From Curvularia clavata (lineage: Eukaryota), in contig CP089279.1 in NCBI GenBank assembly GCA_023920165.1, forward strand, positions 2,108,001 through 2,172,000: a DNA stretch of 64,000 bases, read 5' to 3'. The translations under genes were made by a program, and so were the position numbers. The notes beneath the pieces are model-generated. The model ran no database searches and was not told where the DNA came from. It was given only the letters and a program-made list of their open reading frames with translations. Shown here in pieces: positions 34,449-40,470 of this stretch (positions are counted from its first letter, which is position 1; each line of letters begins with the position of its first letter).

Positions 34449-35729
34449 CTAACCAGTGCTCAGGCCGGCCTTGCCAGTCTCCTGCACAGGCGTCCACTTG
34501 CCCTCCTTCTTGAACTGGTCACCCCTTAATGTGGCCTGGGCAAGCTGGGAAATCAAGTAGTCTCGACCCTTGATCATCCACACCATCTGGCTGGGTACCT
34601 TGAAACCATTGAATGCACCGACACCCTTCTGCGTACCGATAGGGCAGATTTGTTGTTCCTTTAGGTTTGCAGTATAGTGACGGTCGCCCTTGTGCGGCTC
34701 ACCAGTCAAGTGAGCAAGCAGATCGTTTTTGAGGTTCGTCATGGCTACAGGTATCGCATCGTACATGTCCATGACGCCTCCTCGTGTGTATGAGCCAACA
34801 TCGCCGACTACGTAGACCCGGGGACCGGCGGATTCGTGTTCGACGCGGAGGGTCTTTGGGTTACAAGCAACACGGTTGCGGTTGTCGAGCCACTCTTTAG
34901 GGAGAAATCCGGTATTTGGACGACTGCCGGTCGCATCGATGTAGATGTCTGCCTCGAGAATCTCTCCATTTGAGAGATCTACTCTTGTCTTTCCGCCTTC
35001 CTCCTCGCTCATCTTGGCTGACCCGATGACCCGTACGTCATAGGTGACATTGCACCCAAGTCGCTTTAAGAATTGCTCAGCAGTCTTTCCAATGGCAGGT
35101 CGGAGAAGAGGCAGGAGCTGCCTGTCGGCACAAAAGAGCTTAATTTGTGCTTTGGGATTCTTGGGCCCAGACGCCATGAAGCCTGGTCTTCCATTTAAGA
35201 TCTCTGCGATCTCTCCTGCTGCCTCGACACCCACTGGTCCACCCCCGCCGATAATTACAGTCTTAGCCGTCTTGAGCTCATCCTGGAAAGTAGCGTGCAC
35301 TTTCTCAAGGGCTGCGCGATCCGTGCTTTGGGTAAAAAGTGGACTGGGCGTCGTAAATCCGGTTGCAATCACGAGTGCTGCATATTGAATAGATTGCATT
35401 TCGCCGGATGTTGTCTGAACGGTGACAGTTTGCGCAGCGGCATCCACCTGGGTTGCAAGGCCTTGGACAAACTTAAACTTGGGAGAAGCATAGGTAAACG
35501 CAGGCTCGATAGGTAGGAAGGTCTTGTCGGACGGCATCATCTGCTTAGAAACGATTTCTCGCGGTGCAGCGATGCGCCACCAAAGATCCTTCGATGGGTT
35601 AACAATAGTGACACTGTAATTAACTCCCTCCTTCTTGGGGAGCTGCGGTAGCACATGCCGGAGCACATAGTGAGCAGCACTAATGCCGGCAAAAGATCCG
35701 CCGATTATGAGAATGGTTTCGGTACTCAT
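34449..35729 (-). CDS. AIF/AMID-like FAD-dependent pyridine nucleotide-disulfide oxidoreductase
   Basis: IIGGSFAGI, LVIATG, IGGGGPVGVEAAGEI, VYVVGD. Confidence 0.88.
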   Translation of the reverse strand: MSTETILIIGGSFAGISAAHYVLRHVLPQLPKKEGVNYSVTIVNPSKDLWWRIAAPREIVSKQMMPSDKTFLPIEPAFTYASPKFKFVQGLATQVDAAAQTVTVQTTSGEMQSIQYAALVIATGFTTPSPLFTQSTDRAALEKVHATFQDELKTAKTVIIGGGGPVGVEAAGEIAEILNGRPGFMASGPKNPKAQIKLFCADRQLLPLLRPAIGKTAEQFLKRLGCNVTYDVRVIGSAKMSEEEGGKTRVDLSNGEILEADIYIDATGSRPNTGFLPKEWLDNRNRVACNPKTLRVEHESAGPRVYVVGDVGSYTRGGVMDMYDAIPVAMTNLKNDLLAHLTGEPHKGDRHYTANLKEQQICPIGTQKGVGAFNGFKVPSQMVWMIKGRDYLISQLAQATLRGDQFKKEGKWTPVQETGKAGLSTG

Positions 35730-36613
35730 CTTAGGTCGCGTTGCTTGATGGTGCGCTCGAGATGAATATTTGGCAAAGGAAACAAGGAGTAAACAAAGGG
35801 GTCGAAGAAGAAATTACTGCGAAGACGCGCCGTATTAAAGTTTGGACGCGCTTCAAGCCTCAAGGAAAGTCGCAGTGGGGAGCCGTTGGAAGGCGAATCG
35901 AGAACACAAAAGTGTCTTGGGCGTTTCGTCGCAAGTGCTTACCCATGCGTACCTATATAGACTTTGCAGATTCCCCTTGTCGCTGTCTGAGCTCCGCATA
36001 TGCTCAACCTCCTGAATCGCATTGATGATCGGACTTCAACAAGCGTGTCGCAATATCTTGGAGGCTTGCGGGCGCGACGCTAAACAAGACACGCTAGCCC
36101 CTTTGCACCTAGTTTTCATGACCGATCTGTCCCTGACAAGCGTTCGGGAATCTGACTTGCGGCAGACACGTGTGCCAGCCATTCCAATGAACACCAAGCT
36201 ATACCCCATCTATACTCCAAGCCTCCGGTTCACGAGTATTGTATACGAGTCATGGATGTACATCGTGATCATCGATAGGCCTGTGAATGCCTGGACAGGG
36301 ACCCAAGCATTCGGGCCATGTTGAGTCCAAGACGTGACAGTTCACGAAGCATGCATGCGCATACTTGTCGAGCTTGCAAGCGGGGCGCAGCGGCAACATG
36401 GAGAACGTGCTAGAAGACTTTCATTCATATCCTTTTTTTCTGATATAACGCCAGCCGGCATTTGCATGCTAAACCCGCCGCGACTGCTGACCGTAATGAT
36501 CATTGCATTCATGAAGCCCTCAATATCAATATACATGCGGCAGGCCGTCGTTGCACGTAACCTCCTTCTCAACTCTGCCTAAGTCTTTCTTGAGCTACAA
36601 CTTGGATAGCTGC

Positions 36614-37485
36614 TTACTCGACCTCGGCCTTGGTCTCGAAGTTCTCACCAGCGACGAGCTCAGGGATGTCATCGTCATCCTCGTCATCCTCGTCCTTCTT
36701 CTCGCCGTCCTCGCCCTTCTCCTTCTGCATGCTCTGGTAAGACTCGGCCAGTTTGCGTAGCGATGCGAGCGAGTCGGGTCCGAGCTGGTTGAGAATGCCG
36801 GGGACGAGCTCTGTCAGCTCCTTGTCCTCACCGTGTCCGTAGATGGCAAAGGTGTTGGCGGGAACTGAGGCGTGAACTACAGTGACAGAAATGTCAGTTT
36901 CTGTTTCGACATCAAAGCGAAGAGTGTCCAGTTGACCAAGATGTTTGCGCGTCTTCCACGGCGCAACACTTGCTCAACTTGAACTGCCCCTGTAGTATAA
37001 CAGAGAGCGGAGATCTGGTGACATACCCTTGGGCGCCGAGAAGTGGATGACGTTGCCGTCGCTCTTGAACATGTTGACCTCCTCAATGGCCTGGATGGGC
37101 TGGACGTTGAGCTTCTTCAGGGCAGTCTGGAGCTTCTTGTCGTCGGTACCAGCGCCCCTGTGGACCTTCTTGACCTTCCTGCGGGGAGTGCCCTTGCCGC
37201 TATAGATCCAATTAGCTTCGTCTACCTCATGAGCTCAATCTCCACTCCGGACTGGTTCTTCGATTATAGCGGGGTGCGGCGGGAGTTTCACAAATTCCGT
37301 GTGGTACTCGGTGCGGGGCTGTCAAAATAGATGATGAGAGTCTTGCTTACCCTGTGCACATGTGTTAGCAGTTGTATATCAGAGAGACACAACCAATGGC
37401 CTCCTTAAACAAGCTCAAGCTTGAATTTCCTCGACATACCAATGCGCACTGACGCCTGCATACGCGCCAACTTTGCGTGATCCAT
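36614..37485 (-). CDS. EGD1: Nascent polypeptide-associated complex beta (BTF3), 160 aa; exons 37485-37440, 37351, 37199-37027, 36876-36614
   Basis: [63 protein letters not shown]. The frame requires a 1-nt exon at 37351. Confidence 0.93.
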
Positions 37486-38276
37486 ATTTGCGGTGTTGAG
37501 AGAGAAGGCTCGTGAGTGGAGAGAACTGTGGCAGCCAAACGTCAGCGGTCGGTTCCAATTGCACGGGGGTTCGAGCGGTCGAAACTGGAGCGGGCACGGG
37601 ATCGTACGCACCTAAATTCGGGATCGTGGCCGAGTCTTGGAGTGTGGTGTAGCTGGTGAAGTTGTTGCGGGCATCGGCGAAACTCTACGGAAGCGCCGAT
37701 TGTGTGCTTGCCTCGCTTGTCGAATGCTCTTCCCCGCAACGTCAGAGGGCGCGCGCTCTCCCACAACTAGCATGAATGACTGTGACAGATACCGCTACTT
37801 TTGGAGGCAGAATCGTTCGTGCTAAGAACACAGTAAACAATAAGTAACTGTGACAAGTACAGCTACTTTAAAAAAAACAGAATGCCATCTCCGGTTTCAC
37901 CAGCTGTGGGAGAGGTGCGCCACCGACAGTCAATCAGAGCGCTCACGAACACGACATGCATTCTTCACCATGCGGGACCGTCATTTGAGAGATACTTGGT
38001 TCTATTATAACCCATACCGCTGACATGCACTCAGCAAGCCATTGGCTAAACGTCAGTCGCCTCTCCAATATTAGAAGCTTTCTTGGCACCAGCTGCTTCA
38101 CATACAGCAGGCCATCTGAACGTAAACTAGACGCAAACACCATTGAGTCGCATGCGCTGGTTGGCGAGAACCTGCTGGAGAAAAAAGTAAAGGGCTCAAT
38201 TGTACACGCATAAATACGCTATGAAATCAGGAATTTGTTAAACTTGCTGCCACCTCCATCCACTCTAAAACGCTAC

Positions 38277-39023
38277 TCAAAGCATGGCCAATCCAGCAAG
38301 ACCAGCAGCACCCAACACCCATAAGATGGCCTTGGCCTGTGTTGTTGCGCCGTTCGATTTACCGGTCGATTGAGGCGCTGCTGCACTACCGCTACCAGAA
38401 GCCTGGGGCTTGTCGTCGTCGTCACTTCCGCCTGATCCCGAAGATGTCGAGTTAGGGTTACCAGAGATGTTCTCTTGAACCACCTTTACACCCGTGTTGT
38501 TCTTGCAGTTGTTGTCAAAATCCGACTGGGAGAGCTGCTTGTCGACCAGGGTAACGTCGGCGCACTATGCTGTCGTCAGCGACTCGGCGCATGTAAGACT
38601 GGTGATTCAATGACTTACCTGGTACAGACCGCCCTCGCCGTGGGCGTTAGATACGACTTGAATAGATGCCTTGGTGCCAGCAGTCACGTTGAGGCCCTTA
38701 GGAATGGTGACCGAGCCCATGCAGAAGTCACCCAGGCCCTCGACCATCAGCTGCTGCTTTGCGACTATGCTGAATCCGCTTCCTGGGTTGTCACCAATCG
38801 CCATGTATACTGCGACATTCGTCTGTGGGTGTCCCATGACCAACTGGATAGGACCACCGCTGATAGGAAAATCGGTACGATCCTGTGAAACGTCGTTGTA
38901 TCCTCCACACGGGAAAGTGCCTTCAATATCGTCGTTGAAACCTCGCGACTTGGGAAAGTTGAGGTTGAAGTGAGCGAGGGAGAGAGGGAGAAAAGAAAGG
39001 GCGAGGAGAGTATTGGAGAGCAT
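38277..39023 (-). CDS. GPI-anchored BIM1/X325-like (LPMO-like) copper-acquisition protein
   Basis: Signal peptide followed by His1 (HFNLNFPKSRGF..PCGG), MGHP, GLYQ|CADV across intron 38565-38618, Ser/Gly linker and hydrophobic GPI tail. Confidence 0.85.
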
Positions 39024-39818: not shown

Positions 39819-40470
39819 TTAATGAGGCGCGGCCTGATTGAATCTGCCGAAAGCCAATTCACCAATAAATGTGCCTGCCAAAACAGACATGAAATATCCA
39901 ACGTTATAAGTCATGACTGCCAACATGCTGTTGACACGTTAGTGCTGATCAGGAAGGGGTTAACTTTGATTGTGCTTACAGGAGGTATCCGACACCTGCC
40001 GCGACCATCATCAAGAATGCGCGTGGGAGGTCAATGCCAAACCTCCAGGGTTGAATGTGAGATACGGGCGCGGAGACAATACGAACGTTCTCCTGAACGC
40101 CGTTGGTGGTAAGAATGCCGGTTGTTGAGTTGGAATCGTTGGCTGCGCTTTCGAGCACTGTCTTATCGCCGGCCACGACCACATAACGGCGGTTCAGGGC
40201 GCTTTTGACAGCCTTGATTTCCAGGAAAGTTTTGGCTGTGAAAAGGGCGCGGAGTAGGATGGCGAGGAAGATGAGGAAGATGCATGTTCCTGCATATTGG
40301 CCAGCTGTCGACGGGGTCCACGCATTGGAATACAGAGGCGTATTGGTAGCCGTGAAGAAGGCCATTGCCATGCCACCATGGCCGCTGGAAGTCGAAGAGT
40401 CCATGGGCATATCAGCGCCCATATCCATGCCAGCCATGGCCATGCTGTCGTGATCCTCATGTGCAACCAT
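39819..40470 (-). CDS. Ctr-family high-affinity copper transporter
   Basis: Met/His-rich N-terminus (MVAHEDHDSMAMAGMDMGADMPM), MAMAF, W.P.T.GQYAGTCIFL, MxxxM (MLAVM) and GxxxG after intron 39928-39979. Confidence 0.93.

Follow-up and report, generated by a model that had tools for sequence, protein, structure and literature searches.

Evidence for a constitutive one-nucleotide exon in the NAC-beta gene of Curvularia clavata and related filamentous ascomycetes

Introduction

Exons of a single nucleotide have been described in both plants and fungi. In Arabidopsis thaliana, the single-nucleotide exon A333 of APC11 was proven by a base substitution that was tracked into the cDNA, and the authors favour intron definition, with sequential removal of the flanking introns (Guo and Liu, 2015; PMC4674806). 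A one-nucleotide exon in the CYP621A P450 genes of Fusarium was presented by its authors as without precedent in fungal genes (Nelson and Syed, 2026; PMC12940212), and a long-read annotation of Coprinopsis cinerea is described as containing thirteen 1-nt exons (PMC12230235). A related phenomenon is the stwintron, in which the donor, branch or acceptor element of an external intron is split by an internal one (PMC5587772; PMC6616335), as exemplified by the alternatively spliced [D1,2]/[A2,3] stwintron (Fekete et al., 2017; PMC5587772).

A reading of one stretch of fungal DNA from its letters alone (hereafter, the sequence-only reading) had proposed that a Gly codon of the gene for NAC-beta is split over three exons, the middle one consisting of a single G, and had described such exons as very rarely documented. 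The rarity of the kind stands, whereas the description needs updating in the light of APC11, CYP621A and the thirteen cases in Coprinopsis cinerea. The present locus is an addition to this known but rare class, in a housekeeping gene and with an unusually wide fungal span; no published report of a one-nucleotide exon in NAC-beta, EGD1 or BTF3 was found in the literature searched.

The closest parallel is Fusarium CYP621A, likewise a fungal case, in which a lone G in an AG-G-GT context occupies the second position of a Gly codon within a conserved motif; that exon bridges a phase-1 end and a phase-2 start, is shared by orthologues, has RNA support and was missed by annotation (PMC12940212). The two differ in that CYP621A is a rarely expressed P450 described from one genus and 20 orthologues, whereas NAC-beta is a highly expressed housekeeping gene with the layout present in loci nearest to four classes of Pezizomycotina. 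APC11 resembles the present case as a constitutive, frame-essential 1-nt exon between two GT-AG introns, but it is a plant gene, its base is an A, it is described as not conserved in rice (the paralogues being intronless) and it was proven by substitution (PMC4674806), whereas the NAC-beta case concerns a G and rests on sequence and RNA contigs. The Coprinopsis cinerea annotation shares with it the occurrence of 1-nt exons in fungi and the breakage of gene models when they are omitted; it comes, however, from a basidiomycete and as a genome-wide count (PMC12230235). Finally, the [D1,2]/[A2,3] stwintron similarly consists of adjacent GT-AG units in Pezizomycotina with boundaries differing by a single G, the units being removed by consecutive reactions, but its internal introns are described as overlapping by one G, each interrupting a signal of an external intron (PMC5587772); in NAC-beta, by contrast, the introns are separated by one G, both are complete and the G stays in the mRNA.

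Results and discussion

Gene anatomy and coding frame

The window, that is, the whole stretch of 64,000 nucleotides of Curvularia clavata DNA that was analysed, carries the gene on its minus strand (Table 1). Its identity as NAC-beta (EGD1/BTF3), the beta subunit of the NAC chaperone that associates with ribosomes, follows from a match of the exon segment 37198-37028 to the Pfam NAC domain (PF01849, E 6e-16), the basic N-terminal stretch RRKVKKVHR and a product of 160 aa, within the about 150-165 aa typical of such proteins. The RRK..KK stretch of NAC-beta has a role in ribosome binding. The 57 residues of that exon segment are 88-100% identical to proteins named nascent polypeptide-associated complex subunit beta, and the records closest to the window come from Pleosporales (Exserohilum, Bipolaris).

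Table 1. NAC-beta and its neighbours in the window, listed in the direction of transcription
Feature	Position	Strand	Length and signals	Evidence
Ctr copper transporter, upstream of NAC-beta	39979-40470	-		PF04145, E 1.3e-21
BIM1-like copper acquisition factor, upstream of NAC-beta	38610-39023	-		PF20238, E 2.6e-29
5' untranslated exon	37612-37800	-		Pieces of RNA contigs X1, X10, X16
5'UTR intron	37526-37611	-	86 nt, GT..AG	Joint 37525 to 37612 in contigs of three of four runs; X3 contig ends short of the intron
Exon with ATG (37485-37483) and first G of the split Gly codon (37440)	37440-37525	-		Sequence, frame test, RNA contigs
Intron A	37352-37439	-	88 nt, GTATGT..CTAAC..CAG; motif to acceptor AG, 12 nt	Sequence; layout in 66 of 66 related versions
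One-nucleotide exon G, second base of Gly codon GGC	37351	-	1 nt	Frame; RNA keeps one G; invariant in 66 of 66 versions
Intron B	37200-37350	-	151 nt, GTAAGC..CTAAT..TAG	Sequence; branch motif within final 25 nt in 63 of 66 related versions
Exon with C (37199, third base of the split Gly codon), GKGTPRRK.. and first part of NAC domain	37027-37199	-		PF01849, RNA contigs
Intron C	36877-37026	-	150 nt, GTATGT..CTGAC..TAG	Joint 36876 to 37027 in four of four runs
Last coding exon, stop TAA (36616-36614)	36614-36876	-	3'UTR runs on below 36614	Frame and RNA contigs
Downstream neighbour, pyridine nucleotide-disulphide oxidoreductase domain	34452-35729	-	Uninterrupted 426-aa ORF	PF07992, E 6e-26

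The upstream edge of the 5' untranslated exon is variable: the X16 and X10 contigs end at 37634 and 37646, respectively, and the X1 contig extends 157 bases beyond 37800, which would fit a long alternative 5'UTR as well as read-through from the BIM1-like gene upstream.

The first coding exon closes with ..GTG CGC ATT G, its last base being 37440, and the exon that follows intron B opens with C GGC AAG GGC ACT at 37199. Between them, the segment CTAAC..CAG-G-GTAAGC at 37368-37345 sets the lone G between a complete acceptor (branch motif and YAG) and a complete donor (GTRNGY). All exon and intron coordinates and motifs that the sequence-only reading had listed for 37200-37440 are present in the sequence. 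Its further claims, that the 160-aa protein depends on the lone G and that omission of this base shifts the frame, were borne out when the exons were joined by coordinates: with the G, the joined sequence spans 483 nt and encodes 160 aa; without it, the frame shifts after RI and a stop follows after 42 residues. Retention of intron A or of intron B in the joined sequence likewise introduces stops.

One G is retained in the RNA

Transcript structure was assessed on contigs from four public runs belonging to four studies (X1, X3, X10 and X16), all of them assembled contigs; X10 and X16 are on record as RNA, and X1 and X3 are RNA by guess only. Contigs of all four runs connect 37199 directly with 37439, a skip of 239 bases whose placement is ambiguous by one base, and this is the junction that had been predicted for the RNA. 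Because introns A and B and the lone G together comprise 240 bases, a skip of 239 implies that the mRNA retains exactly one G. The contigs with this skip have word depths of 906.6, 416.9, 22 and 11.5 in the four runs, and intron C is removed in all four as well. Across the exons, the contigs show no letters other than those of the window in three runs, and a single one, located in the 3'UTR, in X16. A low-depth X3 contig (3.1 versus 416.9) that covers 36849-37009, starting in the last exon and continuing into intron C, represents either unspliced pre-mRNA or carried-over DNA; it is the closest to an intermediate that was seen.

The three G residues that could stay in the mRNA (37439, 37351 or 37200) are indistinguishable in the RNA contigs, and the aligner reports the joint as one cut with the ends TA..AG or GT..TA. 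The contigs could thus be read as the product of a single 239-nt intron with a non-canonical boundary, removed in one step and with the internal AG-G-GT left unused: the aligner places the joint exactly so, and molecules with only intron A or only intron B removed were not found among the contigs of the four runs, nor was any lariat from the internal sites seen, assembled contigs being unable to show rare intermediates. A skip of 240 bases, from the intron A donor to the intron B acceptor, was likewise found in the contigs of none of the four runs, but assembled contigs drop rare variants. Since the runs are available as assembled contigs, the absence of half-spliced and of 240-base-skip molecules carries no weight. 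Against the single intron stands its boundary, as neither GT..TA nor TA..AG is, to our knowledge, a recognised intron class. Further evidence on this point comes from the relatives of the window.

The AG-G-GT site is conserved between diverged introns

Metagenome contigs scanned with the exon-2 peptide yielded 80 loci. The end of exon 1 (..RI followed by GGT) was found upstream in 79 of these, the remaining one (L028) being cut 128 nt upstream of exon 2. Together with the window, the 80 loci represent 67 distinct intervening stretches, 66 intron-bearing and one intronless (L078). In the 66 intron-bearing versions, no single GT/GC-AG or AT-AC intron leaves the required 3 nt, and all 66 are solved by splitting the codon as G, G and N around a YAG-G-GT, with exactly one such site in 62 versions and two in 4. 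The conservation of the site in orthologues, which the sequence-only reading had proposed as a check, thus extends to every distinct intron-bearing version, and the split of one Gly codon over three exons is upheld by these versions and the RNA contigs alike.

In 66 of 66 versions, the lone G is preceded by C or T at position -3 and by AG, and is followed by GT, the G itself being invariant. The intron B donor has A or G at +3 in all 66 and G at +5 in 60, and a CTRAY branch motif lies within the final 32 nt of intron A in 61. Intron A measures 61 to 487 nt (median 98) and intron B 68 to 252 nt (median 133). In keeping with a synonymous site, the base at the third position of the split codon varies (C in 23 versions, A in 23, T in 19 and G in 1). 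The intervening stretches have otherwise diverged, with a median pairwise identity of 0.58 and 49 clusters by single linkage at 70%; the closest match to the stretch of the window reaches an identity of 0.71. The 66 versions have no conserved element other than the splice signals. As a control, the intron interiors were subjected to dinucleotide-preserving shuffling, 200 shuffles per sequence. A usable YAG-G-GT at the frame-solving position was present in 66 of 66 observed versions versus 4.1% of shuffles, and a strict form, which combines a CTRAY branch motif 8-45 nt upstream with a GTRNG donor, in 58 of 66 versus 0.07%; the comparison overstates significance, because the loci are relatives rather than independent draws. 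The pattern indicates that selection acts on the internal branch motif, acceptor, G and donor.

The relatives bear directly on two objections. Were there a single 239-nt intron, the would-be 3' boundary, which in the 66 versions is always a normal YAG or AAG, would be off by one base in every one of them, and there would be no reason for the internal branch motif, YAG, G and GTRNG donor to be conserved in 58 to 66 of the 66 versions at a median identity of 0.58. We therefore consider one-step removal of a single intron highly improbable. An assembly or sequencing error, with a base missing at an exon edge, is suggested by nothing more than the a priori oddity of the layout. It would have to be reconciled with the same layout in all 66 distinct versions, which come from independent assemblies, and with RNA contigs that match the window across the exons without a single other letter in three of four runs; such an error is next to inconceivable. 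The objection of a base missing at an exon edge, foreseen by the sequence-only reading itself, is accordingly contradicted by the RNA contigs and by the 66 versions.

What remains is one retained base, a complete acceptor and a complete donor on either side of it, and no single canonical intron that solves the junction; this is a one-nucleotide exon. We conclude with high confidence that G37351 is a constitutive exon of NAC-beta, with independent U2-type GT-AG introns on either side, one of 88 nt and one of 151 nt.

Several loci deviate from the common architecture. L078 (1017 nt) is without all three introns of the coding region and encodes NAC-beta in a single open frame of 156 aa that reads RI-G-GKGT. 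It resembles a contig derived from a transcript of another lineage, or possibly a retrocopy, and its reading implies that this junction also occurs in a spliced product from a different lineage. L025 contains an extra intron in exon 1, about 300 nt upstream of exon 2 and between ..KLAR and MQNAARI, in addition to the layout of intron A, G and intron B; this looks like a lineage-specific intron gain. In L020, L060 and L071, intron A reaches 475-487 nt (against the median of 98) and intron B is 82 nt long, with the AG-G-GT site retained.

Taxonomic breadth

Taxon labels were assigned to the loci as guesses from the nearest named protein by a crude tblastn sum, in which overlapping matches in the acidic tail were added up, so that the percentages are rough. 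On this rough scale, the nearest names include Alternaria, Epicoccum and Ophiobolus (99-100%), Pseudocercospora, Oidiodendron, Mollisia (about 93%), Letharia (about 93%) and Sarea, as well as Sphaerosporella and Choiromyces (92-94%). Taxonomy look-up places Choiromyces in Pezizomycetes, Letharia in Lecanoromycetes and Oidiodendron in Leotiomycetes; with the classes of the remaining names, the span also takes in Dothideomycetes. The sampling lies outside Sordariomycetes, Eurotiomycetes and non-Pezizomycotina. Judging from these loci, the layout appears to be common to very distant filamentous ascomycetes, those nearest to Dothideomycetes, Leotiomycetes, Lecanoromycetes and Pezizomycetes, and its presence in loci nearest to four classes of Pezizomycotina implies that it is old.

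Two complete introns one base apart

The sequence-only reading had also suggested that the introns are removed in order, as in a stwintron or by recursive splicing; in a device of this kind, one intron would have to leave first so as to create the signals of the other. There is a steric argument for sequential removal, namely that two spliceosomes could hardly act 1 nt apart, and the authors of the APC11 study argue likewise (Guo and Liu, 2015; PMC4674806). An obligatory order of removal is plausible. Introns A and B are, however, both complete, with donor, branch motif and acceptor, before any splicing takes place. The intron B donor reads GTAAGC with G at -1 both before and after the removal of intron A, and the intron A acceptor reads CAG/G both before and after the removal of intron B. 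Because neither intron interrupts a signal of the other, the arrangement is not a stwintron. A recursive ratchet point is an AG/GT that leaves no base behind, its donor being restored when the first ligation takes place. The present site, AG-G-GT, by contrast leaves one base in the mRNA, and the intron B donor exists beforehand, so that no donor is regenerated. With the signals of both introns intact from the outset, the likeness to either arrangement did not hold, and we regard a stwintron or recursive-splice device of obligatory order as very unlikely.

For the constitutive exon, we propose that each intron would be recognised across itself, by intron definition, through a donor, a branch site and an acceptor of its own. 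The single G would then serve twice, as the base after the intron A acceptor and as the base before the intron B donor, and in the mRNA it would stand at the centre of the first Gly codon of VRIGGKGT. Removal of the two introns is probably sequential, because a spliceosome on the intron A acceptor and a U1 snRNP on the intron B donor would hardly fit 1 nt apart, and intron A, being the earlier transcribed, is likely to be the first to go. Either order is compatible with the sequence: removal of intron A leaves the intron B donor as ..TGG/GTAAGC, and removal of intron B leaves the intron A acceptor as CAG/GC.

Skipping of the lone G could, alternatively, be a regulated switch, whereby direct joining of the intron A donor to the intron B acceptor yields a frameshifted mRNA that is targeted by NMD and tunes the dosage of NAC-beta. 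The skipped product stops after 42 codons, upstream of intron C, so that such a transcript would be eligible for NMD by the exon-junction rule. The 240-base skip is, however, found in the contigs of none of the four runs (contigs in which rare variants are dropped), only the splice signals are conserved and the site looks constitutive; a regulatory switch is accordingly quite unlikely. More far-reaching still would be the proposal that the one-base exon of NAC-beta is the oldest and most widely kept one known, predates the split of the Pezizomycotina classes and has been kept because it enforces a two-step, recursive-like splicing whose failure product, the 240-base skip, is an NMD target that tunes the dosage of a protein equimolar with the ribosome. 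We consider this combination of claims unlikely. A small RNA hosted by the introns, as a reason for having two lariats, was rejected: an Rfam scan of 36500-37800 with E up to 10 returned one chance-level match only, to mir-1197 (E 0.2), which lies in intron C on the plus strand and scores 20.3 bits where the gathering score is 80.

Instead of serving regulation, the constitutive exon is probably a frozen accident under double constraint, kept since the Gly codon and the consensus positions of both splice sites all need a G. That G is preferred both after an acceptor and before a donor is a point made for Fusarium CYP621A (Nelson and Syed, 2026; PMC12940212).

Public gene models at the junction

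The correct junction, RIGGKGT, is present in 6 of the 35 named public proteins examined. Among the 120 proteins listed, 26 have the correct junction, 29 contain the exon-1 peptide with a wrong junction, 64 are without the exon-1 peptide and one is without GKGT; the 64 include many simple ORF calls from metagenome contigs, which are not eukaryotic gene models. The variants seen at the junction of public proteins comprise VRIGTGKGT, VRIGIGKGT, VRIGNGKGT and VRIAILQTHRGKGT, and further models read through intron A, start with other N-termini or are fused to the upstream gene (332-432 aa). In seven models (P0012, P0016-18, P0042, P0059 and P0073), it is the upstream BIM1-like gene that is fused to the NAC-beta exons, probably because the one-base exon defeated the predictor.

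Concluding remarks

Most of the public records examined for this housekeeping gene are wrong at the junction, and application of the AG-G-GT rule would correct them. Phase mismatches of a like kind elsewhere may hide further one-base exons. Beyond annotation, the gene offers a natural, highly expressed and deeply conserved test case for the way in which the spliceosome handles an acceptor and a donor one base apart and for the minimum size of an exon, in readily manipulated fungi whose splicing relies on intron definition.
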